NCBI GenBank assembly: GCA_964057225.1
Contig: OZ059896.1
Location: 18,786,001-18,850,000 of the forward strand
Length of the DNA: 64,000 nucleotides
Direction: 5' to 3'
Source of the DNA: Auanema rhodensis
Lineage: Eukaryota > Animalia > Nematoda
In this document: one piece after another, positions 15,601-55,993 of the stretch
Numbering within the stretch: the stretch's first letter is position 1
Layout of the letters: each line of letters opens with the position of its first letter
Notes under the pieces: generated by a model
Seen by the model: only the letters and a program-made list of their open reading frames with translations
What the model was told of the DNA's origin: nothing
Database searches by the model: none
Position numbers and translations under genes: made by a program

Positions 15601-18197
15601 TGTCTAATTTGAATGCGATTTGCATGGCCTTGTGGCCTAATGGATAAGGCGTCGGACTTCGGATCCGAAGATTGTAGGTTCGAGTCCTGCCAGGGTCGTT
15701 ATTTTTTGTTTTAAAAAAAATCATTACCTGATAAATTACATGTTTTATTCTGTATTATCTCAAACAATTGAAAAAAATACTAACAGTAAAACAAATGCAG
15801 TGTTAATATTCTCGAGAATGTTCCTATTCAGAGTGAGAAAATATCGAAAATTTCCCGAAGGTTTTCTCATAAGGTACTAAAATAAAAGTATTATTTCATA
15901 TTATTATTTTTTCAGACCTAGAATCGATAAAAAAAATTAACTACATTTTAGTGAGTTACTGGGTTGGGTTATACAAATTGTCTAATTAGAATGCGATTTA
16001 CATGGCCTTGTGGTCTAATGGATAAGGCGTCGGACTTCGGATCCGAATGTTGTAGGTTCGAGTCCTGCCAGGGTTGTTATTTTTTGTTTCAAAAAAATCA
16101 TTACCTGATAGTTTACATGTTTTATGCTGTATTATCTCATACAATTGAAAAAAATACTAGCAGTAAAACAAATGCAGTGATGATATTCTCGAGAATGTTC
16201 CTATTCAGAGTGAGAAAATATCAAAAATTTCCCGACGGTTTTCTCATAAGGTACTAAAATAAAAGTATTATTTCATATTATTATTTTTTCAGACCTAGAA
16301 TCGATAAAAAAAATAAACTACATTTTAGTGAGTTACTGGGTTGGGTTATACAAATTGTCTAATTAGAATGCGATTTACATGGCCTTGTGGCCTAATGGAT
16401 AAGGCGTCGAACTTCGGATCCGAAGATTGTAGGTTCGAGTCCTGCCAGGGTCGTTATTTTTTGTTTCAAAACAATCATTACCTGATAGTTTACATGTTTT
16501 ATTCTATATTATCTCATACAATTGAAAAGAATACTAGCAGTAAAACAAATGCAGTGTTAATATTCTCGAAAATGTTCCTATTCAGAGTGAGAAAGTATCA
16601 AAAATTTCCCGAAGGTTTTCTCATAAGGTACTAAAAGAAAAGTATTATTTCATATTATTATTCTTTCAGACCTAGAATCGATAAAAAAAAATCAACTACA
16701 TTTTAGTGAGTTACTAGGTTGGGTTATACAAATTGTCTAATTTGAATGCGATTTAAATGGCCTTGTGGCCTAATGGATAAGGCGTCGGACTTCGGATCCG
16801 AAGATTGTAGGTTCGAGTCCTGCCAGGGTCGTTATTTTTTGTTTTAAAAAAATCATTACCTGATAGTTTACATGTTTTATTCTATATTATCTCATACAAT
16901 TGAAAAAAATACTAGCAGTAAAACAAATGCAGTGATAATATTCTCGAGAATGTTCCTATTCAGAGTGAGAAAATATCAAAAATTCTCCGAAGGTTTTCTC
17001 ATAAGGTACTAAAATAAAAGTATTATTTCATATTATTATTTTTTCAGACCTAGAATCGATGAAAAAATCAACTACATTTTAGTGAGTTACTGGGTTGGGT
17101 TATACAAATTGTCTAATTTGAATGCGATTTACATGGCCTTGTGGCCTAATGGATAAGGCGTCGGACTTCGGATCCGAAGATTGTAGGTTCGAGTCCTGCC
17201 AGGGTCGTTATTTTTTGTTTTAAAAAAATCATTACCTGATAGTTTACATGTTTTATTCTATATTATCTTAAACAATTGAAAAAAATACTAGCAGTAAAAC
17301 AAATGCAGTGATAATATTCTCGAGAATGTTCCTATTCAGAGTGAGAAAATATCAAAAATTCTCCGAAGCTTTTCTCATAAGGTACTAAAATAAAAGTATT
17401 ATTTCATATTATTATTTTTTCAGACCTAGAATCGATAAAAAAAATTAACTACATTTTAGTGAGTTACTGGGTTGGGTTATACAAATTGTCTAATTTGAAT
17501 GCGATTTACATGGCCTTGTGGCCTAATGGATAAGGCGTCGGACTTCGGATCCGAAGATTGTAGGTTCGAGTCCTGCCAGGGTCGTTATTTTTTGTTTTAA
17601 AAAAATCATTACCTGATAAATTACATGTTTTATTCTGTATTACCTCATACAATTGAAAAAAATACTAGCAGTAAAACAAATGCAGTGATAATATTCTCGA
17701 GAATGTTCCTATTCAGAGTGAGAAAATATCAAAAATTCTCCGAAGGTTTTCTCATAAGGTACTAAAATAAAAGTATTATTTCATATTATTATTTTTTCAG
17801 ACCTAGAATCGATGAAAAAATCAACTACATTTTAGTGAGTTACTGGGTTGGGTTATACAAATTGTCTAATTTGAATGCGATTTACATGGCCTTGTGGCCT
17901 AATGGATAAGGCGTCGGACTTCGGATCCGAAGATTGTAGGTTCGAGTCCTGCCAGGGTCGTTATTTTTTGTTTTAAAAAAATCATTACCTGATAAATTAC
18001 ATGTTTTATTCTGTATTATCTCAAACAATTGAAAAAAATACTAGCAGTAAAACAAATGCAGTGATAATATTCTCGAGAATGTTCCTATTCAGAGTGAGAA
18101 AATATCAAAAATTATCCGAAAGTTTTCTCATAAGGTACTAAAATAAAAGTATTATTTCATATTATTATTTTTTCAGACCTAGAATCGATGAAAAAAT

Positions 18198-18580
18198 TGT
18201 CACATCTGCAAGCACATGGTAAACATGTGCGCGCTATTCAAATAGCGGGAGCCTGAACAAGCCCCGCCTACAACATGGGACACACATGTCACTCTTGCTT
18301 CTGGCCTAACCCAGATAGGTTGTCTTATAGCCATGTGAGTCTCATCTCTATATCATCTATATATATATACTCTATTTAATACTTTGTTATATCTCTTTAT
18401 ATTCTTTCTTAATGTAATTCTTATATTGTATTTTCTTGTTATCTGATAATGAATCCTTTTCGCTTTAAGTATTTGTCTTAATAAGGAAATCGGGTCGTTC
18501 GGGTCTGCCTACCTAAGGAACAAGGTAGAAGTACATATATCTTCCGACCATGAAAAGACGGGAAGAAACAATATGTAACG
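18198..18580 (+). repeat. Element A 5' LTR (TG...CG)
   Basis: Direct repeat of 27963-28345; no differences seen by eye. Confidence 0.96.
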
Positions 18581-18593
18581 TGGAGGTTCCACC
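18581..18593 (+). promoter_or_regulatory. Primer-binding site, tRNA-Gln
   Basis: TGGAGGTTCCACC directly after the LTR; complement of the tRNA-Gln 3' end GGTGGAACCT-CCA. Confidence 0.9.
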
Positions 18594-19733
18594 TTGCTTA
18601 CTTTACTGTTAATTTATTGACAGCAAGTTTACGAGACTTTTGGACTTAATTACCCAACAGTGAGGAGTAACCGAGCCGTGCACCATGATTTCCCCAAAAA
18701 TTATTTTGGCTACCACTTCTCCTCCGCTCAACGAAAACTGGGAGGTGTCTGAGACGTTTGGGGAAACTATCAGACAATAGTTTTGACGAGCGTTACCTTT
18801 TTGTTATGCACGCGCGTGCTATTTTGATTCATTACTTTATGATGTGAATGTCCAGTGTGGCAACAGAGCTCACTTTTTAGCTGAGTTGTTTGGAAGCTGG
18901 AGGCTGTTGGGATAATTTTATTTACGATTTTTTGATTTTGATTCACATCCAAGGGTTCATCAGGGTTCCACTCCTGTTAACTCTTTTCTTATTAGTTCAG
19001 AGATAATAAGAATATTTAAATTCCTACCCACCCAAGTCCACTCTACGTCTGCCAACGTTTCCTTTTTCCTATATTATTGACAGATTACTGAATTTAAACT
19101 CCTATATCAATCTTAAATTACCTTCTAAATCTTTGGAAATTAAATTAAAAATTATCTTAATTAAGATTTATTTTGAAATTCTTTCTACAAATCTTAATAA
19201 ACTTTATAAAATTGAACTTAATATACGAGATGAGACATTTTTGTTTACTTTAAGCTTACTCACATTCAAATAGTTGGCCCACGCGTACCAGCTGTTCGAC
19301 ATGTGTAGTCAATAACAGCTGTTAAAATTCAAAAGTTTTCAAACAGGCTTAAGGCACCATCTGTGATTCCTTATTTGTCTCTAAGCTGACATTAGTGATT
19401 ATAATATTCAAATATCACGACAGACGGTCAATGGTTGTTTACCATAAGCGCTAACATCTGGTGTCGTGACACATGGCTGGAGGCGGAGCTTGAAGCTTCA
19501 ACGATCCTCCTTCATCAGACGCCATTGTCACAAACGTTTTTACTGGAGTCTAGTTGCTTCCAGTACGCGCTCTTATATTCATCTAACTGTATTCACCAGC
19601 CACCCTGTCGGACTCGGACATCAGCGAGGAAAACAAAGATCAGGAACAAGGATCACCAGAGGTACGCCAAGTTTTTGAATTTAATTCTAAAAACTTAAAT
19701 ACTCCATCCACCTACCTCTCTTCTTTTGAATTT

Positions 19734-22700
19734 TTGAGAGAAGAAGGTGATTCCTCTTCTTCTTCTCACTCTTCTTCTCTAACAATTAGAACGAGAAGTA
19801 AAAGCAGAAAGGCCATCACTGAGGAAACACCTCGGGCACCTACTACAGTACGAAATAGATCACCAAGTCGGTGGGCCGCTGCTATAACTAAAGCTTTTGA
19901 AAGAAAAATGACTCCTACCTCTCCATCTCCTAATTCTAATGTTGCTCCACCCTCTAGAAATATGGCAACTATTTTGAATTGCCATCTCTGTCCCAGGTAT
20001 GACGGCTCTCGTAGCTTTCGTTCTTTTGTTGAATCTTTAAATAGATTTTTTAATGTTATGAATCTAAGTTTACCTGAGAGACTATTAATTTTACCTCTTC
20101 TTTTGGAATCAAATGAAACAGCTCTCTCCTTGTATAATAGTATTCCTAGTGGCATAAGAACTAATGGCCCATGGATTGTTTTGATGGATCAGCTCACTGA
20201 GCTTTTAGCGCCTAAAACAGATAAAAATTTCACCATAGCGCTTATTCATCGAATACAACAAGGAGATAAATCTGTTCTCGATTTTAGTATGGAATTAGAG
20301 AGAATGGCAAGCACCATAATGTCACCAATGGATCCCGAGCGGGAACCAATGTTGAAAACGGCATTTTTAAATGGTTTAAAAGAGGAACTGGGTATTGCGG
20401 TTTTAACTAAAAACCCCGCCACTTATGAACAAGCTAAGAAATTAGCTAGGTTTGAAGAAGGCGTTCGGAATAGCTTCATGAAAAGAAATGAAGACACCAG
20501 CACCTTGAAGGAGCTCATAAATGCTTTACAACATAAATTAAGCTTTAGTGAAGAAAGAGAAAGAAGTAGGAATAATAATAATAATAAAAATTATAAAAAT
20601 AATAAAAATAATAAAAAAAATAATAACTGGACTCAGCACAATAATGGCTCTAATGATTATGAGCGAGAGAGAGAGCGACCTTCTGCCGTACGTTATAATA
20701 ATAATAATTCGCAGAACGGGAATATGAATAGGCGTCCTAACCCGGGAAACCGCCCATTTGCCAATGGCAGAAATGCCAATAGCTCGTCTTGGAACCCTAG
20801 GCCTAGTTCCCCAAGAAGACAAAGACCATCAGCCAATGGGAATGGTAACTCAAGGGTATACAGCGTAGCGACCCCATTCATGCCACCGGTCACGTTGTGC
20901 CTGACTTTATTGGCACTCTCATGCCTTCCCTTTGGGTCGGCAAAATATCAGATTTGCGCTCAATCTGAAGGGGGTATATTAGTAACACCTCCTGTGGTCA
21001 CAGGCTGCCATAAGGCAGAAATTGAAAAGGCTCACAGTGTTGAGGTAGAAATATATCTACCAAAGGCTGAGATAGAGTCATGGGAAGCATGGAAATGCTA
21101 TGTGAAAAAGTATAAAAGCTGTGTGAGAGATTTCATGTTTTTGAGAGATCGTAACACCACATTCTCTCATATTGAAACAGTAGATAAGAAAGATTGTGTT
21201 CGAGCACATAGAAATCGTATGTGGAATGATAAAATCATGAATGCCCAACAGCATTCAGTTTTTGAAACACCATTAAACGAGCATAATCCAACTCGCTCTT
21301 GGTCCACTGAAGAATGTGTAGAAATTGAACAATTTGTATTGAAGCGAGGGATAATAACTAGATTGAAAGAAGATCACATTGTATCAGACTTATTTATAAA
21401 TACTGATAATTGTAAAGGAAATGAAGGGTTTTGTGCAACTGGTGAAGGTGCAGTTATCTGGCAACCACCTATCCCATCAGTTGTCTGTCACTATCAAAAA
21501 CTTGGCCCCTTCTCCGCCATGTTGGGTGATCATATTCTTCTAGTTCACTCTATTGAAAGCGCTTTTGTTCTCCAAAATCATTCCACATCCGCTCACGTTC
21601 AATCTTGTTTCGAATTCGCTGTTTTTGAATCATCTTCTGAGGCAATTATCCGATTCACAGCATATCCCCGTGTTTATAATTTGCTTGATCTTTCCAATAC
21701 TTTGCTTAATGCTGATAGACGCAGAAATAAACGTAATGCATTACCTCAAAAACATCGCTCTTTCAGTGATGATTATCTTTTTGTTAATGCGAAATCCCAA
21801 TCATATGCGTTTCCATTTCTAAGACCTACTTTCATTTTTGGATCTGCATCTATCACTAAGTTTTACGCAAAATATATGAGATATGCAGCTACATCATCTT
21901 ATGAGAGTTTGCTCCAATTCGCGATAGATAATCCACTGTTCATTGACACAATTGTTAGTTTAGGATTGACAAAAGATCACATAACTAACTGGGCCAAGTC
22001 TAATAATTTCAAAGATCCCAATCTTTTGATTTTACAATGTATGGGTATAGAGGAAATTAAACTGGCTACTAGACAGGTGATTAATAGCATGAAATTGGAT
22101 GATCTTATCACTCAAGTAGCTCGTCGTATAGAAGTTCCTCGGTTAAAAAGATCTTTGATGAAATCTACAACATCCATAGAAGATTTCTTTCGAGGAATGG
22201 CTCACGCAGTAGTATATCAAGCCACAATTCTTGATGGTACACAAACAGTTCCATCAATCGAACAGTTGGCAAGAGCCTTATATCCATCTATATTACCACG
22301 CAGTGGAAATATGAATCAATCTGAAATTATTGCAACTGCTCAAGGCATGTTATTCATGATCCAACAACAATCGGGAAAAGAACAAATATCTCGTGACATG
22401 CAAGTCAGTCGACAACAAAAAGCTGATGCTACTGTTAGAAATAACCAAGAGCAAGATTTAGCAATTATATCCAAGCTGCCTGACTATCACAACCTTTATA
22501 CAAAGAATAGTACAGCATATTATGGATTTCCTCCACAGTCCATCGAATACCCACAGGAAAATCCTAAATTCAATAAAACAGAAGTTTTAGAATTCATAAG
22601 TTGGGTTAAAACTCAAATCACAACTGATAAAAATATGGTGGTACAGCATACTACTGTAACCCCAATAACTTCCACCAAAACTACAATTCGTAGTTTAACA

Positions 22701-25700
22701 ACTCCTACCCCTAATGCGTACGAGAGAGGTCGAGAGTTGTATGTAGCAGAAGTATATGACAATGTTCTCCACAAATCAGAGCATAAAACTAAAACGATAA
22801 TAGATAATAAGTTGAATTATGGGTTTGAGAAAGCGCGTCTCTCCATAATTGACGAATTTCATCAACAGTTTCATACCATCTGTAAATCTCAAATGGAAAC
22901 TGTAAAAAGCTGGCAAGCTATATTACGTATACATCCTACAATAGGAGTACGAGCTATGCTTCAGCGGGATGATATCGTTGCCCGATTTGTTGGAAGAAAT
23001 GTTTTAAAAATAACAACTTGTCAGGAAATAGAACCACATTTCATTTATCGTAATCATTCTTACAATGATAAATGTTATGCAGAGACCCCTGTTTTAACAC
23101 ACGATAAACAATTATTCTTTGCTCCTATCGATAGCTACGATTTGAGCACTGAAGGACATGAGATCAATTGTGAACACAAAGAGACAGAAATTTGGTATGA
23201 AAATGGAACATGGAAAGATTATAAAGGTGACACACATAAAGTAGATAGTATTCATTCAGAAAAACATGATCATTATGCTGAATTGAGTAAACTTCGATTC
23301 ACAGGGCGGAATTTGTTTGAAAATTCGACTGAAAAATCCTTAGCCCTATCTATTGGATTAACTTATGGTTATAGTTTATCTACTTCACCTCACCATGATC
23401 TTCTCCGCGTAATTTCTCGTTCACGTGATTGGCCTCAAATTTCCTCTTTCATCTTCAAAGGAAGTAAACTTATAAGAGATGCCAGGAAAATTGTTTTCTC
23501 CAATTGGGATCTGTTCATTGACTTTTGTATAGGTTCAATTGAACGAACACTCATTACCATCGGTTGTATAACTCTGATATTATGTCTAATGATAGCATTA
23601 TATTTCACTATAAAATGTTATCTCTCCCCTACTTCTATGTTAAAAATAAACCATATCATGTTGAGCCCAACAGCTCCACCTTTTGAGGGAGATGAGATTC
23701 ATGAAACAGTTAGTGATGAATTGATGCGGAGCTATTTTCCCACCATAATAACTTACATTCCTTTAGCCATACCTTTTGTATGTCACACAACAACAAAGAA
23801 AAATGGACACATGTTACCGTTTGTTCATATTGACATTGAAGGTAGAGGACTGTTAGCATTATGGGATTCTGGAGCTACGGTCTCATATATTCCGTTCTCC
23901 ACATTGGCATATATTGGAAGACAATATTTTACAAAATATTCTAAATCTGCATCCACTGCAAATGGATCAGAGTTTCGCTTTGTGGGAAAATGCAAGTTAG
24001 ATGTGGGTATAGCAGGTTACCAAGTGGAACACGAATTTTTAATATCTGAAGACAATGACTGTCCAGGACAAATGTTACTTGGTACTGATTTTATGCGTAC
24101 GTTGGAAGAAAGAGAGATATTTACTACATTAAAACTATGTAAAGGAAAGTTGATTGTTGGTAATATGGAAACACCCTTAGTAAAACCTGGTTGTTTTGCA
24201 TATAAAACCACAACTAAAACAGTAAATATCATAAGTTTGTCCACAGTAACAGTTCCACCACATAGTACCTCCCACATATCTTTGCAAACAGGACCAGAAT
24301 TAGATTTTGATCAATATGCTCTTTTAAAATCTAGCACAGGTCCTATATCAATTCCAGATGCCGCCATAGGACCTTTTCCTATTACTATGGTAGTATCAAA
24401 CAATTCTTCAAAGCCAATTAAAATTAATAAAAATGACCACATTGGTTCAGGACTTATAGCATCTAAAGAAATTATGAACGATTATGTTCCACCTGAAGCT
24501 GATTGGGAAGATAAGTTACCAACTTTTCCTCAGCATCTTTTGGATGATTTGAACTTCAATTCTTGCACTCTGTCTCATAAAATGAAGAAAAATCTGATCA
24601 CAATCATTAAGGAAAACCAAACGGCATTTTTCAACCATGATCATAATATTGGTCTCTTTTGCGGACCAGTTGAACATGCCATTCCTATGAGATCTGATAT
24701 GGATTTTCCAAAAAGTAGATCTTACAGAGTACCATTGGGTAAGCAAGAAGAAGTAGAACGGCAAGTGAAAGAAATGTTGTCGCAAGGTATAATCGAAAAT
24801 TCGACGGCTACTTTCACTAGTCCGGTTGTTCTTGTGAAAAAGAAAGATAATTCTTTCCGGTTCGTTACTGACTTTAGAGCATTGAATAGTGTTACTAAGA
24901 AACAAACATACAGCATCCCACACATTCCTGATATCATAGACTTAGCGGCTGGAGCTCAGTTCTTTTCGAATTTTGATCTCATTTCTGGTTTCTTCCAAAT
25001 ACCGTTGAAACGCTCAGATAGATACTTAACTGCTTTTACCACTCCATCAGGTACCTATCAGTATTGCCGAATGCCTATGGGATTGTGTGGAGCGCCACAC
25101 ACTTTTCAATCCGCAGTACGATACTTGCAATCTCTTGTTAGATGCAAACTGTTTGTATATCTAGATGATTTGCTAATAATTTCGAACTCAGCTGAAGAAC
25201 ATTTAAGAGATATACAAGAAGTGCTGAAAAAGGTCACTGAACTAGGGTTAAAAATTAAGTTATCTAAATGTTGCTTTGCAGCCACTGAAGTAAAGTTTTT
25301 GGGTTTTATAATAGGTAGAAATGGTGTTAAACCAGATCCTGCTAAAATACAGGCTGTTTCCGAATTTCCAAATCCAAGCACAGTTACGGCTGTCAGATCC
25401 TTTCTAGGTATGACTAACTATTTTCGACGGTTTATTCAAAATTATGCCGGAATAGCTGAGCCATTGTATAAGTTAACACATAAGGATACTCCTTTTGAGT
25501 GGAAATCGGAACATGCAGACGCATTTGAAACTTTAAAAACATTACTGTGTACTGCCCCTGTACTGAAACCTCCTAAAGCAGACCAACCTTTTGTTATAGA
25601 AAGTGATGGCAGTATGATCGCTGTGGGAGCAGTTTTATTGCAATCAGCAGAGAAAAATTCTCCATTACACCCGATTGCGTTCGCTAGTAGAAAGTTGACT

Positions 25701-27344
25701 CCAGCGGAACGGAAATATCCTCCTATTGAAGTTGAAGCACTCGGTTTAGTCTTTGCTCTTCAACAATTCCGTACCTATGTATTAGGAGTACCTACCACAG
25801 TTATCACAGATCACCGACCATTAACCAGTTTAATGTCGCGTAAAGATCTCATAGGTAGATTAGCCAAGTATCAACTAATGATACAAGATTTCAACATAAA
25901 GATTGAATATCGTCCTGGCAAATTAAACAGTGTCTGTGATGCTCTCTCCAGGTATATAGGAAACGAAGCAAATGACAGTCGTCCTACTAAACCAAAGGAC
26001 AAAGTAAAACCTGTTGATGCTTTTATTGCTCATATCACAACTATTTCTTCTATTGACCAACTAAATTGTGAAGAAATACGGAAAGTTCAAGCTGGAGTTC
26101 CCTGGATTCGCGAAGCACTTTCTCAAATTAATAATGATAACTGTCCGGCTAATATATCAGACCGGTATGAAGAACGAGAAGGCATATTACATGCAAAACA
26201 AGCGAAAAATTATTTGAAACCATCTATTATTTTGCCTCGTAACGACAAAATAACTGATGTTGTTATCAAGTTTTTTCATGAAGATTCCAAAATTGGTGCA
26301 CACCTAGGTATAAATAAAACTACTGATGCGATTCGACGACGATTCTTTTGGACTAATATGGTTCCACAAATAACTGAATTTATTAATCGTTGTACAAAAT
26401 GTGCAAGTAGGAAATCTAACCCACACCAATCGTATATTCAACCTATGGGAAGATTTGTTATACCCGAAAAGCCATTTGATCGTATTCATGTAGATATACT
26501 AGGTCCTTTACCTCGCACTAATGATGGACATCGATACATCTTGAGTATTCAAGACGCTTTTAGTAAATGGGGAACAACTTGCCCATTAATAACACAAACG
26601 GCTACTGAAATCACAAAAGCGTTTGTAATTAGATTTGTTTTCATATATGGACCACCAATGAGTATGATAACTGATAATGGTAGTAGCTTTTTGTCATCTG
26701 AATTTCAAGCTATGTGTAAACAATTTGGAATTAAACACACTACTACGCTACCATATCATAAAAATGCTAATGGACAAGTTGAGAGACTTCATAGAACTTT
26801 GGAAGAAGCTCTCTCTTCATTCGTGAATGAACAACAAACTAACTGGGATATACACCTACCTAAAGTTATGTTTGCGATCAATACGTTACCAAACTCATCA
26901 ACATCTATTAGTCCATATGTTGTATTATTTGGTCGGGATGCAAGACTTCCTATTGACCATCAATTGCCTGGAAATAATCTTCAAACTGAAGAACCAGCCA
27001 ATCCTACAGAAGATTTTGTCAATAGATCGCTAATACAAAATGAAAGCACATCTAATATAGTAAAAGATAGAATTGAAACATGCACAAAGAAGAATGAACA
27101 ACGGTACAATACACGAAATAGAACACAAAATAAAGAAATTCAGGTTAATGACTTAGTTATGATAAAAGTGAATTCTACTCGAAACAAACTAACACCTTCA
27201 TTCGAAGGGCCTTATTTAGTTACAGCAGTTCAAAGATCTTTCGTCGTGGTTCAAACAGATAAAGGAAAAAGCAGAAGAGTACACAAGGACTTCGTCAAAC
27301 CTTACCAACGGACAACATCTATTCCGGTTATCACAATTTCTTGA
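19734..27344 (+). CDS. Gag-Env-Pol polyprotein (first in-frame ATG at 19908)
   Basis: Capsid-like region (LKTAFLNGLKEEL), signal peptide ~20880-20942, Cys-rich ectodomain, TM ~23547-23612, protease LWDSGAT, RT YLDD, RNase H (ESDGS, TDHRPL), integrase HHCC/DDE and GPY. Confidence 0.95.
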   Translation: MREEGDSSSSSHSSSLTIRTRSKSRKAITEETPRAPTTVRNRSPSRWAAAITKAFERKMTPTSPSPNSNVAPPSRNMATILNCHLCPRYDGSRSFRSFVESLNRFFNVMNLSLPERLLILPLLLESNETALSLYNSIPSGIRTNGPWIVLMDQLTELLAPKTDKNFTIALIHRIQQGDKSVLDFSMELERMASTIMSPMDPEREPMLKTAFLNGLKEELGIAVLTKNPATYEQAKKLARFEEGVRNSFMKRNEDTSTLKELINALQHKLSFSEERERSRNNNNNKNYKNNKNNKKNNNWTQHNNGSNDYERERERPSAVRYNNNNSQNGNMNRRPNPGNRPFANGRNANSSSWNPRPSSPRRQRPSANGNGNSRVYSVATPFMPPVTLCLTLLALSCLPFGSAKYQICAQSEGGILVTPPVVTGCHKAEIEKAHSVEVEIYLPKAEIESWEAWKCYVKKYKSCVRDFMFLRDRNTTFSHIETVDKKDCVRAHRNRMWNDKIMNAQQHSVFETPLNEHNPTRSWSTEECVEIEQFVLKRGIITRLKEDHIVSDLFINTDNCKGNEGFCATGEGAVIWQPPIPSVVCHYQKLGPFSAMLGDHILLVHSIESAFVLQNHSTSAHVQSCFEFAVFESSSEAIIRFTAYPRVYNLLDLSNTLLNADRRRNKRNALPQKHRSFSDDYLFVNAKSQSYAFPFLRPTFIFGSASITKFYAKYMRYAATSSYESLLQFAIDNPLFIDTIVSLGLTKDHITNWAKSNNFKDPNLLILQCMGIEEIKLATRQVINSMKLDDLITQVARRIEVPRLKRSLMKSTTSIEDFFRGMAHAVVYQATILDGTQTVPSIEQLARALYPSILPRSGNMNQSEIIATAQGMLFMIQQQSGKEQISRDMQVSRQQKADATVRNNQEQDLAIISKLPDYHNLYTKNSTAYYGFPPQSIEYPQENPKFNKTEVLEFISWVKTQITTDKNMVVQHTTVTPITSTKTTIRSLTTPTPNAYERGRELYVAEVYDNVLHKSEHKTKTIIDNKLNYGFEKARLSIIDEFHQQFHTICKSQMETVKSWQAILRIHPTIGVRAMLQRDDIVARFVGRNVLKITTCQEIEPHFIYRNHSYNDKCYAETPVLTHDKQLFFAPIDSYDLSTEGHEINCEHKETEIWYENGTWKDYKGDTHKVDSIHSEKHDHYAELSKLRFTGRNLFENSTEKSLALSIGLTYGYSLSTSPHHDLLRVISRSRDWPQISSFIFKGSKLIRDARKIVFSNWDLFIDFCIGSIERTLITIGCITLILCLMIALYFTIKCYLSPTSMLKINHIMLSPTAPPFEGDEIHETVSDELMRSYFPTIITYIPLAIPFVCHTTTKKNGHMLPFVHIDIEGRGLLALWDSGATVSYIPFSTLAYIGRQYFTKYSKSASTANGSEFRFVGKCKLDVGIAGYQVEHEFLISEDNDCPGQMLLGTDFMRTLEEREIFTTLKLCKGKLIVGNMETPLVKPGCFAYKTTTKTVNIISLSTVTVPPHSTSHISLQTGPELDFDQYALLKSSTGPISIPDAAIGPFPITMVVSNNSSKPIKINKNDHIGSGLIASKEIMNDYVPPEADWEDKLPTFPQHLLDDLNFNSCTLSHKMKKNLITIIKENQTAFFNHDHNIGLFCGPVEHAIPMRSDMDFPKSRSYRVPLGKQEEVERQVKEMLSQGIIENSTATFTSPVVLVKKKDNSFRFVTDFRALNSVTKKQTYSIPHIPDIIDLAAGAQFFSNFDLISGFFQIPLKRSDRYLTAFTTPSGTYQYCRMPMGLCGAPHTFQSAVRYLQSLVRCKLFVYLDDLLIISNSAEEHLRDIQEVLKKVTELGLKIKLSKCCFAATEVKFLGFIIGRNGVKPDPAKIQAVSEFPNPSTVTAVRSFLGMTNYFRRFIQNYAGIAEPLYKLTHKDTPFEWKSEHADAFETLKTLLCTAPVLKPPKADQPFVIESDGSMIAVGAVLLQSAEKNSPLHPIAFASRKLTPAERKYPPIEVEALGLVFALQQFRTYVLGVPTTVITDHRPLTSLMSRKDLIGRLAKYQLMIQDFNIKIEYRPGKLNSVCDALSRYIGNEANDSRPTKPKDKVKPVDAFIAHITTISSIDQLNCEEIRKVQAGVPWIREALSQINNDNCPANISDRYEEREGILHAKQAKNYLKPSIILPRNDKITDVVIKFFHEDSKIGAHLGINKTTDAIRRRFFWTNMVPQITEFINRCTKCASRKSNPHQSYIQPMGRFVIPEKPFDRIHVDILGPLPRTNDGHRYILSIQDAFSKWGTTCPLITQTATEITKAFVIRFVFIYGPPMSMITDNGSSFLSSEFQAMCKQFGIKHTTTLPYHKNANGQVERLHRTLEEALSSFVNEQQTNWDIHLPKVMFAINTLPNSSTSISPYVVLFGRDARLPIDHQLPGNNLQTEEPANPTEDFVNRSLIQNESTSNIVKDRIETCTKKNEQRYNTRNRTQNKEIQVNDLVMIKVNSTRNKLTPSFEGPYLVTAVQRSFVVVQTDKGKSRRVHKDFVKPYQRTTSIPVITIS
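20880..23700 (+). other. Envelope glycoprotein domain, class III fusogen-like (herpes gB / chuvirus G type)
   Basis: Hydrophobic signal TLCLTLLALSCLPFGSA, N-glycosylation sequons, furin-type site RRRNKR (21717-21734), gB-like block ICKSQ..W....IHPT....R..VARFVG.VL.ITTC...CY..TPV, C-terminal TM. Recognised by motif only. Confidence 0.75.
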
Positions 27345-27950: not shown

Positions 27951-27962
27951 AAGGTGGGGGGA
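27951..27962 (+). promoter_or_regulatory. Polypurine tract of element A
   Basis: AAGGTGGGGGGA immediately before the 3' LTR. Confidence 0.9.
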
Positions 27963-28345
27963 TGTCACATCTGCAAGCACATGGTAAACATGTGCGCGCT
28001 ATTCAAATAGCGGGAGCCTGAACAAGCCCCGCCTACAACATGGGACACACATGTCACTCTTGCTTCTGGCCTAACCCAGATAGGTTGTCTTATAGCCATG
28101 TGAGTCTCATCTCTATATCATCTATATATATATACTCTATTTAATACTTTGTTATATCTCTTTATATTCTTTCTTAATGTAATTCTTATATTGTATTTTC
28201 TTGTTATCTGATAATGAATCCTTTTCGCTTTAAGTATTTGTCTTAATAAGGAAATCGGGTCGTTCGGGTCTGCCTACCTAAGGAACAAGGTAGAAGTACA
28301 TATATCTTCCGACCATGAAAAGACGGGAAGAAACAATATGTAACG
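27963..28345 (+). repeat. Element A 3' LTR
   Basis: Copy of 18198-18580, followed by TSD AAAT and resumption of the array unit. Confidence 0.96.
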
Positions 28346-31300
28346 AAATCAACTACATTTTAGTGAGTTACTGGGTTGGGTTATACAAATTGTCTAATTT
28401 GAATGCGATTTGCATGGCCTTGTGGCCTAATGGATAAGGCGTCGGACTTCGGATCCGAAGATTGTAGGTTCGAGTCCTGCCAGGGTCGTTATTTTTTGTT
28501 TTAAAAAAATCATTACCTGATAGTTTACATGTTTTATTCTATATTATCTTAAACAATTGAAAAAAATACTAGCAGTAAAACAAATGCAGTGATAATATTC
28601 TCGAGAATGTTCCTATTCAGAGTGAGAAAATATCAAAAATTCTCCGAAGCTTTTCTCATAAGGTACTAAAATAAAAGTATTATTTCATATTATTATTTTT
28701 TCAGACCTAGAATCGATAAAAAAAATTAACTACATTTTAGTGAGTTACTGGGTTGGGTTATACAAATTGTCTAATTTGAATGCGATTTACATGGCCTTGT
28801 GGCCTAATGGATAAGGCGTCGGACTTCGGATCCGAAGATTGTAGGTTCGAGTCCTGCCAGGGTCGTTATTTTTTGTTTTAAAAAAATCATTACCTGATAA
28901 ATTACATGTTTTATTCTGTATTACCTCATACAATTGAAAAAAATACTAGCAGTAAAACAAATGCAGTGATAATATTCTCGAGAATGTTCCTATTCAGAGT
29001 GAGAAAATATCAAAAATTCTCCGAAGGTTTTCTCATAAGGTACTAAAATAAAAGTATTATTTCATATTATTATTTTTTCAGACCTAGAATCGATGAAAAA
29101 ATCAACTACATTTTAGTGAGTTACTGGGTTGGGTTATACAAATTGTCTAATTTGAATGCGATTTACATGGCCTTGTGGCCTAATGGATAAGGCGTCGGAC
29201 TTCGGATCCGAAGATTGTAGGTTCGAGTCCTGCCAGGGTCGTTATTTTTTGTTTTAAAAAAATCATTACCTGATAAATTACATGTTTTATTCTGTATTAT
29301 CTCAAACAATTGAAAAAAATACTAGCAGTAAAACAAATGCAGTGATAATATTCTCGAGAATGTTCCTATTCAGAGTGAGAAAATATCAAAAATTATCCGA
29401 AAGTTTTCTCATAAGGTACTAAAATAAAAGTATTATTTCATATTATTATTTTTTCAGACCTAGAATCGATGAAAAAATCAACTACATTTTAGTGAGTTAC
29501 TGGGTTGGGTTATACAAATTGTCTAATTTGAATGCGATTTGCATGGCCTTGTGGCCTAATGGATAAGGCGTCGGACTTCGGATCCGAAGATTGTAGGTTC
29601 GAGTCCTGCCAGGGTCGTTATTTTTTGTTTTAAAAAAATCATTACCTGATAAATTACATGTTTTATTCTGTATTATCTCAAACAATTGAAAAAAATACTA
29701 GCAGTAAAACAAATGCAGTGATAATATTCTCGAGAATGTTCCTATTCAGAGTGAGAAAATATCAAAAATTATCCGAAAGTTTTCTCATAAGGTACTAAAA
29801 TAAAAGTATTATTTCATATTATTATTTTTTCAGACCTAGAATCGATGAAAAAATCAACTACATTTTAGTGAGTTACTGGGTTGGGTTATACAAATTGTCT
29901 AATTAGAATGCGATTTACATGGCCTTGTGGTCTAATGGATAAGGCGTCGGACTTCGGATCCGAATGTTGTAGGTTCGAGTCCTGCCAGGGTTGTTATTTT
30001 TTGTTTCAAAAAAATCATTACCTGATAGTTTACATGTTTTATGCTGTATTATCTCATACAATTGAAAAAAATACTAGCAGTAAAACAAATGCAGTGATGA
30101 TATTCTCGAGAATGTTCCTATTCAGAGTGAGAAAATATCAAAAATTTCCCGACGGTTTTCTCATAAGGTACTAAAATAAAAGTATTATTTCATATTATTA
30201 TTTTTTCAGACCTAGAATCGATAAAAAAAATAAACTACATTTTAGTGAGTTACTGGGTTGGGTTATACAAATTGTCTAATTAGAATGCGATTTACATGGC
30301 CTTGTGGCCTAATGGATAAGGCGTCGAACTTCGGATCCGAAGATTGTAGGTTCGAGTCCTGCCAGGGTCGTTATTTTTTGTTTCAAAACAATCATTACCT
30401 GATAGTTTACATGTTTTATTCTATATTATCTCATACAATTGAAAAGAATACTAGCAGTAAAACAAATGCAGTGTTAATATTCTCGAAAATGTTCCTATTC
30501 AGAGTGAGAAAGTATCAAAAATTTCCCGAAGGTTTTCTCATAAGGTACTAAAAGAAAAGTATTATTTCATATTATTATTCTTTCAGACCTAGAATCGATA
30601 AAAAAAAATCAACTACATTTTAGTGAGTTACTAGGTTGGGTTATACAAATTGTCTAATTTGAATGCGATTTAAATGGCCTTGTGGCCTAATGGATAAGGC
30701 GTCGGACTTCGGATCCGAAGATTGTAGGTTCGAGTCCTGCCAGGGTCGTTATTTTTTGTTTTAAAAAAATCATTACCTGATAGTTTACATGTTTTATTCT
30801 ATATTATCTCATACAATTGAAAAAAATACTAGCAGTAAAACAAATGCAGTGATAATATTCTCGAGAATGTTCCTATTCAGAGTGAGAAAATATCAAAAAT
30901 TCTCCGAAGGTTTTCTCATAAGGTACTAAAATAAAAGTATTATTTCATATTATTATTTTTTCAGACCTAGAATCGATGAAAAAATCAACTACATTTTAGT
31001 GAGTTACTGGGTTGGGTTATACAAATTGTCTAATTTGAATGCGATTTACATGGCCTTGTGGCCTAATGGATAAGGCGTCGGACTTCGGATCCGAAGATTG
31101 TAGGTTCGAGTCCTGCCAGGGTCGTTATTTTTTGTTTTAAAAAAATCATTACCTGATAGTTTACATGTTTTATTCTATATTATCTTAAACAATTGAAAAA
31201 AATACTAGCAGTAAAACAAATGCAGTGATAATATTCTCGAGAATGTTCCTATTCAGAGTGAGAAAATATCAAAAATTCTCCGAAGCTTTTCTCATAAGGT

Positions 31301-37047: not shown

Positions 37048-39737
37048 TGTCACATCTGCAAGCACATGGTAAACATGTGCGCGCTATTCAAATAGCGGGA
37101 GCCTGAACAAGCCCCGCCTACAACATGGGACACACATGGCACTCTTGCTTCTGGCCTAACCCAGATAGGTTGTCTTATAGTCATGTGAGTCTCATCTCTA
37201 TATCATCTATATATATACTCTATTTAATACTTTATTAGATCTCTTTATATTCTTTCTTAATGTAACTCTTATATTGTATTTTCTTGTTATCTGATAATGA
37301 ATCCTTTTCTCTTTAAGTATTTGTCTTAATAAGGAAATCGGGGCGTTCGGATCTGCCTACCTAAGGAACAAGGTAGAAGTACATATATCTTCCGACCATG
37401 AAAAGACGGGAAGAAACAATATGTAACGTGGAGGTTCCACCTTGCTTACTTTACTGTTAATTTATTGACAGCAAGTTTACGAGACTTTTGGACTTAGTTA
37501 CCCAACAGTGAGGAGTAACCGAGCCGTGCACCATGATTTCCCCAAAAATTATTTCGGCTACCACTTCTCCTCCGCTCAACAAAAACTGGGAGGTGTCTGA
37601 GACGTTTGGGGAAACTATCAGACAATAGTTTTGACGAGCGTTACCTTTTTGTTATGCACGCGCGTGCTATTTTGATTCATTACTTTATGATGTGAATGTC
37701 CAGTGTGGCAACAGAGCTCACTTTTTAGCTGAGTTGTTTGGAAGCTGGAGGCTGTTGGGATAATTTTATTTACGATTTTTGATTTTGATTCACATCCAAG
37801 GGTTCATCAGGGTTCTACTCCTGTTAACTCTTTTCTTATTAGTTCAGAGATAATAAGAATATTTAAATTCCTACCCACCCAAGTCCACTCTACGTCTGCC
37901 AACGTTTCCTTTTTCCTATATTATTGACAGATTACTGAATTTGAATTCCTATATCAATCTTAAATTACCTTCTAAATCTTTTGAAATTAAATTAAAAATT
38001 ATCTTAATTAAGATTTATTTTGAAATTCTTTCTACAAATCTTAATAAACTTTATAAAATTGAACTTAATATACGAGATGAGACATTTTTGTTTACTTTAA
38101 GCTTACTCACATTCAAATAGTTGGCCCACGCGTACCAGCTGTTCGGCATGTGTAGTCAATAACAGCTGTTAAAATTCAAAAGTTTTCAAACAGGCTTAAG
38201 GCACCATCTGTGATTCCTAATTTGTCTCTAAGCTGACATTAGTGATTATAATATTCAAATATCACGACAGACGGTCAATGGTTGTTTACCATAAGCGCTA
38301 ACATCTGGTGTCGTGACACATGGCTGGAGGCGGAGCTTGAAGCTTCAACGATCCTCCTTCATCAGACCCCATTGTCACAAACGTTTTTACTGGAGTCTAG
38401 TTGCTTCCAGTACGCGCTCTTATATTCATCTAACTGTATTCACCAGCCACCATGTCGGACTCGGACATCAGCGAGGACAACAAAGATTAGGAACAAGGAT
38501 CACCAGAGCCATACCTTTTGTATGTCACACAACAACAAAGAAGAATGAACAACGGTTAATGACTTAGTTATGATAAAAGTGAATTCTACTCGAAACAAAC
38601 TAACACCTTCATTCGAAGGGCCTTATTTAGTTACAGCAGTTCAAAGATCTTTCGTCGTGGTTCAAACAGATAAAGGAAAAAGCAGAAGAGTACACAAGGA
38701 CTTTGTCAAACCTTACCAACGGACAACATCTATTCCGGTTATCACAATTTCTTGAAGGTAGTTTTTTTTTAACAAAATCAAATTGTTGAAATTTTTTTAT
38801 TTTATTTTGTGCCATTTCTGATTGTACCACTTCTTTGTTGTTGATTGATTTTCTCTGAGAAGTCTGCTATTGTTTTACAAAAGTTTGTTTTATTACTCCA
38901 ACTCTCATTCAGTAGATTTTTTTTTCAACATTCTCTTGTGAATTTTGCTATTTTTTATGCTTAATCATTACTTGTATTCACCTTATGGACATTAGTCATA
39001 CGGGTTAAACGAGTTTTCATTTTTTTGTACAGAACGGGCTCGACCTATTCTCAGGGTAACACCGTACCTGTACAACTCGAGAAAATGAACGACTATATCA
39101 CAGTCGAATGGTTTAGAAGCAAAGCTCTCGTTTGCAAGCATTTCACTACTCAAGTGAATGGAATAGAATCTACTCGATACTACATTTCGAATTCAACAAA
39201 CTTGAAGAGACGATAGCTAAACTTTCAAATCGTATTGTATACACTTTTTTTTTATCCACTACACCATGATTTTTTTTCCAACACCCAACTATCTTAAAAA
39301 ATGAATTAATTTATTTGTTTTTGAACGAGGACGTTCAACTTTTTAAGGTGGGGGGATGTCACATCTGCAAGCACATGGTAAACATGTGCGCGCTATTCAA
39401 ATAGCGGGAGCCTGAACAAGCCCCGCCTACAACATGGGACACACATGGCACTCTTGCTTCTGGCCTAACCCAGATAGGTTGTCTTATAGTCATGTGAGTC
39501 TCATCTCTATATCATCTATATATATACTCTATTTAATACTTTATTAGATCTCTTTATATTCTTTCTTAATGTAACTCTTATATTGTATTTTCTTGTTATC
39601 TGATAATGAATCCTTTTCTCTTTAAGTATTTGTCTTAATAAGGAAATCGGGGCGTTCGGATCTGCCTACCTAAGGAACAAGGTAGAAGTACATATATCTT
39701 CCGACCATGAAAAGACGGGAAGAAACAATATGTAACG
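37048..39737 (+). mobile_element. Element B: non-autonomous, internally deleted member of family A (2690 bp)
   Basis: 381-bp LTRs (37048-37428, 39357-39737), TSD CAAA, PBS TGGAGGTTCCACC at 37429, PPT; leader and 3' region retained, ~7.4 kb of coding sequence missing. Confidence 0.97.
38509..38755 (+). pseudogene. Remnants of family A polyprotein (pre-protease linker and integrase C-terminus)
   Basis: AIPFVCHTTTKK and MIKVNSTRNKLTPSFEGPY...ITIS are identical to parts of the element A ORF. Confidence 0.92.
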
Positions 39738-40800: not shown

Positions 40801-43009
40801 ATCCTAACTCTTTGGGATTCAGGATCATCGATTAGTTATATCAGACTCTCGACATTACATTACTTAACTTTGAATGATTTTATAAAAAAGGATAAATCAG
40901 TTGCAACGACAGCAAACGGATCAGCATTTCGATTTCTGGGAACAATTGATTTAACCGTAGAAATCGCTGGATATGAAATAGATCATACATTCTTCATTTC
41001 AAGAGATGAAGACTGTCCATCACCAGCATTAATTGGATTAGATTTTATGAAAACACTCGATCGTCAAAATATCGGTATGAAACTTCGACCATTCAAACAA
41101 ACGTTAGAAATCGGAAACCGCGTAGTACCGTTAGCCAATGGAAATAACGGGAATATTAAAAAAACATCATTTGTCATTAACTTGATAAATTTAAATCCAC
41201 AATGTATCTTTCCTCATCAGACCTGTAGAATACCAGTAAGGTTAGCTGAACCCATATCACACAACGAAGTCGCCGTGCTACAACCCGATGAAGAAAAGAC
41301 GATATCTACCACCTACGAAACAGCATCTCGAGACGTCAATTCAATTACCATGACATTCAAAAACAACACTGATCATCCTATAGATCTATCACCCGGAAAC
41401 ATTATTGACAAAGCAAAAATAGGCGTACTGCCACAATACGAGATCTTTACGACCGAACACAATCCAGACTATATACCACCCGAAGCGGATTGGGAAAATA
41501 AATTACCTCATTTTCCTCAGGACTTTATGAACGATCTTGATTTAAAAGACGCCGACCTAACTAAAGAACAAAAAGATCTTCTTCAGCTTTGTATTCTACG
41601 TAATAGAGATGCATTTTTAAATGAGGATAAACAAATAGGACTATTTAAAGGACCTGTAGAGCATTCAATACCTCTAAGAACAGATATGGACATGCCTAGA
41701 CCGCGTATAACGCGTATCCCTATAGGCAAACAAGAAGAAGTCGAAAGACAGGTACAGGAGATGCTGAACCAAAATATAATTGAACCATCCACATCTCTTT
41801 TCAATAGTCCTGTAGTTTTAGTCAAAAAGAAAGATGAAACATTCCGTTTCGTAACCGATTTCCGTGCTCTAAATAACGTCACTCGCAAGCAAACGTACAT
41901 CATACCTAACATTTCTGACATTGTCGATATGGCAGCCGGATCACAATATTTTTCTAACTTTGATTTAGTATCCGGATTCTTCCAAATAGCATTAAAGAAA
42001 TCAGATCGACCATTAACAGCATTTACAACAAACACCGGTACTTATCAATATAGAAGGATGCCTATAGGGTTATGTGGAGCGCCACATACCTTTCAAACAG
42101 CAGTACGATACCTTCAAAGCCGATGTAAATGCCGACTCTTTGTTTATTTGGATGATTTACTTGTTATATCAGACACTACAGAACAACATCTTGACGATAT
42201 AGCTGAGATTCTCAGAGAAGTAAAGAAATTAGGCATGAAAATTAAACTCAAGAAATGCGCTTTTGCAAGACCTGAAGTAAAATTTCTTGGTTTAATTGTC
42301 GGAAAAGATGGGGTCAAACCAGATCCACAGAAAGTCTCCGCCATTCAAGACTATCCTGCTCCAAAGTCATCTACTGGAGTAAGAGCATTTTTGGGAATGG
42401 TAGGATTCTTTCGGAAATTTATTAAAGATTTTGCACACATCGCAAGCCCTTTATACGACCATACAAAACTTGATGTGGAATTTCAATGGAATGACAAAAG
42501 TCAACAAGCTGTTGATACACTAAAAAGAAAATTGATCCAAGCACCGGTCTTAAAACCACCAAGATCAGACCGTATGTTCATTATAGAAAGTGACGGTAGT
42601 AATATCGCAGTGGGAGCAGTGTTATTACAACCTGAAGATCCCAATGAACCACTCAAAAACTTACATCCAATTGCATTTGCAAGCCGTAAACTTGTAAAAG
42701 CGGAACGTAACTATGCTCCTATTGAAATAGAAGCGTTAGGACTCGTATACGCTTTAGCTCAGTTTCGAACATATATACTTGGATCACATACAATCTGTAT
42801 CACAGACCATCGACCATTAACAAGCTTATTGACTCGTAGAGACCTTTTTGGAAGACTAGCAAAATTTCAATTAGTCATACAGGAATACGATATCGAGATA
42901 AGATACCGAGAAGGCAGACTAAACAAAGTCTGTGATGCTCTCTCATTGGAGATGAAGCAAACGATCCTAAACCGGAAAAGAAAAAGAAAACAAAAGAAAT
43001 TCCGAACCT
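40801..43009 (+). pseudogene. Element C: LTR-less gypsy pol fragment (PR-RT-RNase H) of a sister family of A
   Basis: Frame from 40801 reads ILTLWDSGSSISYI, then YLDD, ESDGS, TDHRPL; DYIPPEADWENKLP versus DYVPPEADWEDKLP in A; small frameshifting deletion after CDALS; no LTR, gag or integrase. Confidence 0.93.
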
Positions 43010-44109
43010 TACCTTATGAGAAAACCTTCGGAGAATTTTTGAAAAAAAAAAACCTTCGGAGAATTTTTGATATTTTCTCACTCTGAATAGGAACATTCTC
43101 GAGAATATTATCACTGCATTTGTTTTACTGCTAGTATTTTTTTCAATTGTATGAGATAATACAGAATAAAACATGTAATTTATCAGGTAATGATTTTTTT
43201 TAAACAAAAAATAACGACCCTGGCAGGACTCGAACCTACAATCTTCGGATCCGAAGTCCGACGCCTTATCCATTAGGCCACAAGGCCATGTAAATCGCAT
43301 TCAAATTAGACAATTTGTATAACCCAACCCAGTAACTCACTAAAATGTAGTTGATTTTTTCATCGATTCTAGGTCTGAAAAAATAATAATATGAAATAAT
43401 ACTTTTATTTTAGTACCTTATGAGAAAACCTTCGGGAAATTTTTGATATTTTCTCACTCTGAATAGGAACATTCTCGAGAATATTATCACTGCATTTGTT
43501 TTACTGCTAGTATTTTTTTCAATTGTATGAGATAATACAGAATAAAACATGTAATTTATCAGGTAATGATTTTTTTTAAACAAAAAATAACGACCCTGGC
43601 AGGACTCGAACCTACAATCTTCGGATCCGAAGTCCGACGCCTTATCCATTAGGCCACAAGGCCATGTAAATCGCATTCAAATTAGACAATTTGTATAACC
43701 CAACCCAGTAACTCACTAAAATGTAGTTGATTTTTTCATCGATTCTAGGTCTGAAAAAATAATAATATGAAATAATACTTTTATTTTAGTACCTTATGAG
43801 AAAACCTTCGGGAAATTTTTGATATTTTCTCACTCTGAATAGGAACATTCTCGAGAATATTATCACTGCATTTGTTTTACTGCTAGTATTTTTTTCAATT
43901 GTTTGAGATAATACAGAATAAAACATGTAATTTATCAGGTAATGATTTTTTTAAAACAAAAAATAACGACCCTGGCAGGACTCGAACCTACAATCTTCGG
44001 ATCCGAAGTCCGACGCCTTATCCATTAGGCCACAAGGCCATGTAAATCGCATTCAAATTAGACAATTTGTATAACCCAACCCAGTAACTCACTAAAATGT
44101 AGTTGATAT
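43010..44109 (-). repeat. Inverted tRNA-Arg array segment (genes 43215-43287, 43591-43663, 43967-44039)
   Basis: Reverse complement of the array unit. Confidence 0.96.
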
Positions 44110-44136
44110 TGTCGCGATAAGCGAGTAGGTTTTGTT

Positions 44137-44161
44137 TTTGTTATCTCTATCTCTCTCTATA

Positions 44162-44196
<35 letters not shown>

Positions 44197-44200
44197 TTAT
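44137..44200 (+). repeat. (CT)n/(CTAT) microsatellite within the element D LTR
   Basis: TCTCTCTC run; 8 bp longer in the 3' LTR copy. Confidence 0.9.
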
Positions 44201-44443
44201 CTCCTTCCTTTGTAACTAGATCAAAACACATATGCATGACATATGTGTTAACATGTGGCATAAGTAACAGTTTATTTCAGACGACCGCCCAACAACGGAG
44301 GACAGTCTTACATTTTCAACGTTCGCAGTCAGTGATTTTATTCCGTGCTTGTCTTGTTAATTCATCAATAAACCCTTTTCTACATATTTGCTTTGTGTTT
44401 TACTTCCAACCATACTATACACTTGTGGTATAACGCCACAAAT

Positions 44444-44455
44444 TGGTGCATCGGC
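44444..44455 (+). promoter_or_regulatory. Primer-binding site, tRNA-Gly
   Basis: TGGTGCATCGGC 3 nt after the LTR; complement of the tRNA-Gly(GCC) 3' end GCCGATGCA-CCA. Confidence 0.85.
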
Positions 44456-44728
44456 TAGTTTAGATCTTAGCCGCTTTAAGTCCCACGTGGCAGGTGAGAT
44501 ACAACTCGAACCAAGCGTGTTTGAGCAAAAAACATACTTAATAAAAATCGTGGCGATCATAAGTCCACGTCAAGTCACACCAAACAGACTTGAACAATAA
44601 GCAAACTCTGAAATTAGAAACAGAGGTTTCAATTTCCTTACGTTCACATATACTGTGATCACCAAACAAACAAAGAAAAAAGAAAACAAAAAAGGAATAT
44701 AAGCATTATTCCTACATCTACAACAAAA

Positions 44729-52660: not shown

Positions 52661-52934
52661 TAAAGAAGATATAAAAGGTAGAATAAACAAAAGCAAAGTA
52701 TAAACTAAAATTCACATAAATAAAATAAACCAAGGAGAAAAGAGAAGGGATTAATTTCTGAAATAATAAAGTAACACGAATCTGCTAGTTTTACTTAAGA
52801 TATCTAATCTGTAGTATTGAATTACATAATAACTCGTTAACAGACGTTTAATGGATAATATCAAAAACAGAAGGATACCATATTAATCCCTGAATGACGC
52901 AATATATCCATATCCAAGAACAGACGCCAACCAG

Positions 52935-52971
52935 TATATAAGGTGGCTAAACAAGTTTGCCTCAACTCAGT
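52935..52971 (+). promoter_or_regulatory. Putative internal promoter (TATATAA plus TCAGT initiator-like motif) for the accessory ORF
   Basis: TATATAA at 52935, TCAGT at 52967, ATG at 52975. The CTCAG could instead be a splice acceptor. Confidence 0.45.
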
Positions 52972-52974
52972 ACA

Positions 52975-53436: not shown

Positions 53437-53508
53437 GTCTTTACACTCTTGCCGCGAGTGTCGCGATAAGCGAGTAGGTTTTGTTTTTGTTATCTCTATC
53501 TCTCTCTA

Positions 53509-53553
<45 letters not shown>

Positions 53554-53797
53554 TTATCTCCTTCCTTTGTAACTAGATCAAAACACATATGCATAACATA
53601 TGTGTTAACATGTGGCATAAGTAACAGTTTATTTCAGACGACCGCCCAACAACGGAGGACAGTCTTACATTTTCAACGTTCGCAGTCAGTGATTTTATTC
53701 CGTGCTTGTCTTGTTAATTCATCAATAAACCCTTTTCTACATATTTGCTTTGTGTTTTACTTCCAACCATACTATACACTTGTGGTATAACGCCACA

Positions 53798-55980: not shown

Positions 55981-55993
55981 TCCCCGGCCTCTC
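55981..55993 (-). promoter_or_regulatory. Polypurine tract of element F
   Basis: GAGAGGCCGGGGA on the minus strand directly before the 3' LTR TGTCAAG. Confidence 0.75.

Follow-up and report, generated by a model that had tools for sequence, protein, structure and literature searches.

A recent Ty3/gypsy element of Auanema rhodensis with a predicted gB-type envelope between Gag and Pol, and a sister copy lacking gag and env between splice-like ends

Nematode, bryozoan and flatworm elements of the Ty3/gypsy group carry only gB-type ENV, in the order GAG-ENV-POL, according to the survey of Chary and Hayashi (eLife, PMC13524379), which credits this layout in nematodes to Sacco et al. 2022 (J Gen Virol 103:1739) and leaves expression and entry of the group open. 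Drosophila-type errantiviruses have an F-type env after pol (PMC13524379), and the Belpaoviridae of nematodes include Tas, with a gB-like env, and Atlas and Cer13, with a phlebovirus-like env (PMC9094657). For the expression of such genomes, three published cases are relevant here: in foamy viruses a spliced subgenomic RNA serves as the message for Pol (PMC7828637), the genomic RNA of the nematode element Cer1 uses host splice sites (PMC10309623), and retrotransposed spliced RNAs are a known by-product of human L1 (SpIREs; PMC5860796). The main text of PMC13524379 makes no mention of splicing, a polyprotein, a single ORF or an in-frame arrangement, and the problem of expression from one frame and a spliced sister copy are therefore not treated there.

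Our analysis of a 64-kb stretch of A. rhodensis DNA (the window) revealed a real, young and intact element that is a new family within this already published group. The sequence-only reading of the window started from the premise that the position of env was out of the ordinary; since the GAG-ENV-POL layout of gB-type Ty3/gypsy elements is in print (PMC13524379), on this point the element amounts to a further family, young and intact. What is new at the locus is a sister copy that lacks exactly gag and env between splice-like ends. We propose, at a probability of roughly 0.85, that the full-length copy is a recent Ty3/gypsy element of the published GAG-ENV-POL group with a single frame for Gag, a gB-type Env and Pol, likely expressed as one polyprotein that crosses the ER membrane twice. 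The features of both copies, in positions of the window, are as follows.

18194..18197, + strand: 4-bp target-site duplication AAAT, left copy
18198..18580, + strand: 5' LTR, 383 bp, with termini TG...CG; no difference from the 3' LTR
18581..18593, + strand: primer-binding site, first 12 nt complementary to the 3' end of tRNA-Gln (eLife supplement, PMC13524379)
18594..19907, + strand: leader, 1.3 kb; holds nine short ATG-initiated upstream frames, each ending ahead of 19661
19662..23766, + strand: segment absent from the sister copy, putative intron of 4105 nt spanning gag and env, ends GTACGC / TTCCTTTAG
19908..20861, + strand: Gag, weak Pfam match (PF03732), no CCHC knuckle, Asn/Arg-rich tail, protease-like RVYSV at its end
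20862..20945, + strand: internal signal-peptide-like segment (hydropathy only), putative cleavage after G-S-A
20946..21734, + strand: Env N-terminal half, predicted with confidence as largely beta, ending in furin-like RRRNKR
21735..22706, + strand: lineage-specific Env insert of ~325 aa, furin-like RLKR at 22140-22151, Thr-rich end
22707..23522, + strand: Env C-terminal half, with a predicted long central helix, gB-like beta domain and membrane-proximal part
23523..23633, + strand: transmembrane segment (hydropathy)
23634..23810, + strand: cytosolic linker, protease-like KINHI, putative splice acceptor at 23766, out-of-frame ATGs at 23780 and 23803
23811..27344, + strand: Pol, with protease (DSG), RT (YLDD), RNase H and integrase; in-frame ATG at 23811
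27104..27143, + strand: second piece absent from the sister copy, 40 nt, GT..AG ends
27951..27962, + strand: polypurine tract
27963..28345, + strand: 3' LTR, letter for letter the 5' LTR
28346..28349, + strand: target-site duplication, right copy, 70-67 nt upstream of a tRNA-Arg(TCG) gene
37048..39737, + strand: non-coding sister copy, identical 381-bp LTRs, full leader, GT..AG joint, most of pol lost

The element is a very recent insertion, and its LTRs, which had appeared identical, are so over 383 bp each without a mismatch. In the element and the sister copy alike, the LTR 3' terminus reads CG instead of the usual CA (18198-18580). Contigs from four DNA-type public runs lie over every bin examined, no single contig spanning the whole element, and the gaps listed inside the ORF come to only one, in-frame and of 3 nt, with no frameshift; the element is therefore no assembly artefact. 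Compared with copies in other runs, 29 of 38 listed differences (of at least 38 in all) are synonymous against an expectation of 22%, and 5 of the 8 listed for env alone. Most members of the published group have several near-identical intact copies per genome; within the 64-kb window the element is accompanied by one deleted sister copy.

The ORF extends uninterrupted from 19587, where our amino acid numbering begins, to the stop codon at 27342-27344 (2585 codons); its first ATG lies at 19908 (2478 aa) and the next in-frame ATG at 19962. The order read earlier from the letters, Gag, signal, ectodomain, transmembrane segment, protease, RT, RNase H and integrase in one uninterrupted frame, is confirmed, and the start then given, 19734, proved to be an in-frame TTG. 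Pfam detects aspartyl protease (aa 1414-1504), RT (1750-1909), RNase H (1972-2102) and integrase (2222-2391), and by both Pfam and tree this Pol is of the Ty3/gypsy type (PR-RT-RH-IN), with full RT and integrase in the continuous frame; in PMC13524379 elements are classified by Gypsy Database profiles. Env sits between gag and pol, Gag being recognized upstream by a weak PF03732 match (Retrotrans_gag, aa 179-266, E 0.0024, below the curated cut-off); this segment also finds a match upstream of env in 17 of the 150 relatives listed. Over the whole ORF, 19-residue hydropathy exceeds 1.5 in two regions only, aa 426-453 and aa 1313-1349, which enclose an ectodomain of ~860 aa; within it lie RRRNKR (aa 711-716), ICKSQMETVKSW (from 1098) and CYAETPV (from 1163). 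A hydrophobic segment occupies the signal position in 49 of 53 proteins tested, the window's own included. To call this ectodomain Cys-rich, as had been done, is loose: there are 15 Cys per ~860 aa, 14 of them conserved, each kept in 23-33 of the 29-33 homologues aligned per column.

How would such a polyprotein be taken apart? From the flavivirus-like topology suggested earlier, the two-pass membrane layout holds, as judged by hydropathy, and the release of Gag by signal peptidase does not. Signal peptidase cleaves on the lumenal side, and on its own it would therefore leave Gag anchored to the signal segment. RVYSV, at aa 423-427 directly before the signal segment, is protease-like, as is KINHI after the transmembrane helix; we take such motifs to resemble a retroelement protease site. 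With the motif defined after the sequences had been viewed, 27 of 37 proteins have one behind the transmembrane helix, compared with 31 of 192 control windows; before the signal segment it occurs in no more than 18 of 53 proteins. Since signal peptidase would free only the N-terminus of Env and protease-like sites flank Env, the likely releasing enzyme of both Gag and Pol is the element's own protease, as far as these motifs indicate.

We thus envisage the following course of events. Gag would be made in the cytosol; Env would enter the lumen by way of the internal signal segment, signal peptidase would cleave there to free the Env N-terminus, and furin may cut at the insert. The transmembrane helix would return the chain to the cytosol, such that Pol starts out tethered to the membrane, and the element's protease would then release Gag at RVYSV and Pol at KINHI. 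Particles may bud through Env-bearing membranes and, to judge from the fold, could pass between host cells, for example from soma to germ line. A splice from the leader to a point shortly before the protease gene probably took place at least once in the history of the family. Copying of the spliced RNA into DNA likely gave rise to a non-coding sister family, which would be mobilised in trans. Gag, Env and Pol in equal amounts from a single frame would be unusual for retroelements, and some regulation is therefore probably missing from this model.

The class III, gB-like nature of the envelope, proposed in the sequence-only reading together with a fold prediction as the means of checking it, is supported. 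The ectodomain was modelled from an alignment with 34 of the 150 listed relatives (35 sequences), giving a mean pLDDT of 69; the two gB-like halves score high and the insert scores low, with 227 of 896 model residues below 50. With one structural aligner the best match of this model is prefusion HSV-2 gB (Z 15.4, rmsd 6.3, 368 aligned, model residues 1-773), and the first 17 rows of the match list are prefusion or primed gB. Foldseek likewise ranks herpes gB first among solved structures, at low TM-scores (0.15-0.18 by query length); among predicted viral proteins its upper rows include Beihai rhabdo-like virus 3, Keturi virus and a nyavirus. In a search with the alignment profile, gB chains appear from E 4.8e-13 and G proteins of rhabdovirus type at ~1e-3; a single-sequence phmmer search of Env against solved structures gave nothing meaningful. 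Pfam gives a Glycoprotein_B match over aa 1074-1165 (E 0.0005, below cut-off). Taken as a prediction, the assignment of the ectodomain to the gB-type class III fold stands, and in the model its N-terminal half likely corresponds to the gB fusion and middle domains.

The ~325-aa insert follows the first furin-like site. One relative of it was found, the Auanema protein P0002 (26% identity); an Atlas search with it gave no usable match, and a model of the insert alone was unusable (pLDDT 36.6). Inserts at the same place in homologous Envs can be as long as ~470 aa; they belong to several unrelated groups, and some are very Ser/Thr-rich. An ectodomain interrupted by so large an insert could mean that Env is no longer a working fusogen and that the element copies itself only inside cells, and the eLife authors call the entry mechanism of gB-type elements unknown (PMC13524379). 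We consider this improbable, given the open frame, the 14 conserved cysteines, the confidently predicted gB fold, the synonymous excess (which for env covers only 8 sites) and the occurrence of inserts of at least 130 aa at the same place in 31 of 94 proteins.

A full HMMER search retrieved 246 proteins related to Env at E<=0.001. Those named are all from nematodes (Auanema, Caenorhabditis, Acrobeloides, Panagrolaimus and Mesorhabditis), and identity to the best matches is 27-32%. Among the 150 listed, env is followed by Pol in one record in 48, and in 11 it comes after a BEL-type Pol. One relative was found by a region search, and none among 4314 candidates in a word-index search with Env alone, in a Pol scan of viral contigs for related env-bearing elements, or in 80 metagenome loci searched for Env by tblastn and profile. 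An RT phylogeny, another check proposed at the outset, places the element within Ty3/gypsy: its RT-RNase H groups with three Caenorhabditis elements, among them env-pol elements of C. brenneri and C. japonica (SH-aLRT 99), in a quick, midpoint-rooted tree of 40 rows (22 non-locus and 18 of 48 locus rows) that leaves out BEL RT. The 12-mer primer site is identical in 2 of the 36 published nematode elements, 16 of which have an assigned primer, in 8 cases Gln (PMC13524379 supplement 1).

The element lies in a tandem array of tRNA-Arg genes. This tRNA-Arg(TCG) array occupies 1-54548 with a unit of 376-378 bp, 79 genes called and an inverted block from ~43010. Three insertions in it sit at short distances upstream of a tRNA-Arg gene: the element at 70 nt (28346), the sister copy at 30 nt (39738), with the target duplication CAAA 30-27 nt upstream of the gene, and a BEL element at ~70 nt (44108). 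A tRNA A or B box that is not in the window is present in 2 of 5 LTR-edge flanks from other runs (at least five, those among the loose ends listed), against 0 of 27433 control windows. Insertion at tRNA genes is the targeting strategy of yeast Ty3 and of Dictyostelium elements. Taken together, our data are suggestive of a preference of the family for tRNA genes, and they may also reflect nothing but an abundance of tRNA arrays in the genome.

Other elements share the window. The BEL/Pao element (44110-53801; LTRs 97% alike) is Atlas/Cer13-like, with one 2680-aa ORF (44618-52660) that ends in a phlebovirus G2-like envelope (PF07245, E 2.7e-41). A related Gypsy fragment (40801-43086), from protease to RNase H, lies at the junction of the array inversion; it is the nearest row in the tree and 68% identical over the RT-RNase H alignment. 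An LTR element on the minus strand (55602-63229; LTRs 99.7% alike) has a gag-pol frame stopped inside RT, followed by a 394-codon ORF (56126-57310) without a Pfam match. In Cer1, the CERV exon is located after pol (PMC10309623), and the 394-codon ORF occupies the corresponding place.

The sister copy matches the full element at 97-98% identity. Its leader is retained as far as 19661, after which the sequence continues at 23767; the 4105-nt piece missing between these points starts downstream of the final leader ATG and ahead of the gag ATG, stops 44 nt short of the in-frame ATG at 23811 (the start of the protease), and has a donor AG|GTACG and a pyrimidine-rich acceptor, TTCCTTTAG. Of random deletions, 0.37% have GT..AG ends and 0.02% show the fuller splice context. 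The joint is present in six of eight public runs, namely in all four DNA-type runs and in two of the four guessed to be RNA; the other two of these have no contig cover there. Copies with and without the 40-nt GT..AG piece both exist in public runs. Because of the GT..AG ends, their 0.37% chance and the joint in six of eight runs, the sister copy likely arose from spliced RNA. Deeper contig cover over pol than over env in X1 and X4 was set aside, as it is unmatched in X9 and does not represent copy number. In three of the runs guessed to be RNA, all from one study, pol is covered and gag and env are not, and cover in the fourth is scattered; we do not take this as evidence.

An ordinary deletion, by a jump of reverse transcriptase or DNA repair with splice-like ends by chance, would find a parallel in the same copy, whose pol deletion lies at an imperfect direct repeat near 23792/27084, as is typical of template switching. 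Only 2 nt are shared at the 4105-nt junction, however, and the 0.37% chance would have to be met by each of the two GT..AG losses, which makes such an origin very improbable. If the piece was indeed spliced out, what was the splice for? It is conceivable that a spliced subgenomic mRNA, with donor 19662 and acceptor 23766, is the main source of Pol, as in foamy viruses, with the unspliced RNA serving for Gag and Env, and that the sister is a DNA record of this pol message that lost most of pol later. The canonical ends in good context, the placement of the piece between the leader ATGs and the gag ATG with its end 44 nt short of an in-frame protease ATG, and the recurrence of the joint across runs all favour a pol message, for which foamy viruses (PMC7828637) and, among nematodes, the splice-site use of Cer1 (PMC10309623) offer precedents.

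Several observations nevertheless render a pol message doubtful. Two out-of-frame ATGs, at 23780 and 23803 (AAAA-ATG-G), precede 23811, and each opens a 17-codon frame that overlaps it; there is no conserved Met shortly before the protease: the distance differs widely between homologues, and 2 of 36 lack a Met in the linker altogether. The continuity from transmembrane segment to Pol is kept in 36 homologues, which fits use as a polyprotein. Where joint-bearing contigs can be followed further they carry the pol deletion (X13), contig X12 ends loose at 23809, and a molecule joined at 19661/23767 with an intact pol was not found among the contigs of the eight public runs. The joint, moreover, is known from DNA and is therefore no demonstration of present-day splicing. 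We lean slightly towards a cryptic splice without function for the full element, one accidental spliced RNA having been reverse-transcribed and spread as a parasite. The parasite form keeps the LTRs, primer site and leader; a second GT..AG loss, of 40 nt, cannot serve Pol, as it is not a multiple of three and lies inside the integrase tail, and the existence of copies with and without this piece is in line with such accidents, as are the SpIREs of L1 (PMC5860796). It fits less well with an accident that the large junction falls neatly between leader and protease start, and that SpIREs are described as dead ends (PMC5860796), whereas the sister form has identical LTRs and is found in all four DNA-type runs.

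What is the relevance of the GT..AG junction? It provides a direct handle on expression, since its use would convert genomic RNA into a pol-only RNA. We speculate, with considerable reservation, that Pol made from a spliced RNA skipping gag and env escapes both the 1:1:1 output and the membrane tether, and that this RNA was packaged, copied back and founded a tRNA-homing non-autonomous family. If true, spliced pol would represent a convergence of a Ty3/gypsy lineage with foamy viruses and would explain why env is tolerated in the middle of a polyprotein. In the literature searched, with most subscription papers outside it, a published spliced-pol strategy was found for foamy viruses only, and no Ty3/gypsy case of spliced pol came up. 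Insertion at tRNA genes would, for its part, extend to a nematode the targeting strategy that yeast Ty3 and Dictyostelium elements use.

Among known systems, the GAG-ENV-POL gB-type Ty3/gypsy 'errantiviruses' (PMC13524379) are closest, with the same gene order, Ty3/gypsy Pol and LTRs, and likewise a gB-type ectodomain between a signal segment and a transmembrane helix. Caenorhabditis members have a tRNA-Gln primer (PMC13524379), as here, and in our tree the RT of the element groups with Caenorhabditis elements. Unlike the published members, the element has a divergent Env with a 325-aa insert common only to an Auanema protein. The F-type env after pol of Drosophila-type errantiviruses is absent here by Pfam and structural matches. 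Belpaoviridae (PMC9094657) likewise encode a single long polyprotein with Env, and the LTRs of Atlas are identical, but their Pol is of BEL/Pao type with env last, whereas the present Pol is Ty3/gypsy with env before the protease. The BEL/Pao marks (Peptidase_A17, DUF1759, and env after integrase) are absent from this ORF and present in the neighbouring BEL element by Pfam, and BEL-type elements carry the same gB-type Env family after Pol in the 11 of 150 listed matches mentioned above. With herpesvirus gB and the G proteins of nyami-, chu- and rhabdo-like RNA viruses the predicted Env shares the class III fold, at ~12% identity, with a large insert and without partner glycoproteins on the element. 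The likeness to foamy viruses (Spumaretrovirinae, PMC7828637) is a possible one only, through Pol from a spliced subgenomic RNA, here putative; their Pol is not a Gag-Pol fusion and their Env has its own spliced RNAs, whereas here one frame is shared and Pol is not separated from Gag. Finally, human L1 SpIREs (PMC5860796) are likewise genomic copies of spliced element RNA, but they come from a non-LTR element and are described as dead ends, whereas the sister form described here looks recently mobile.
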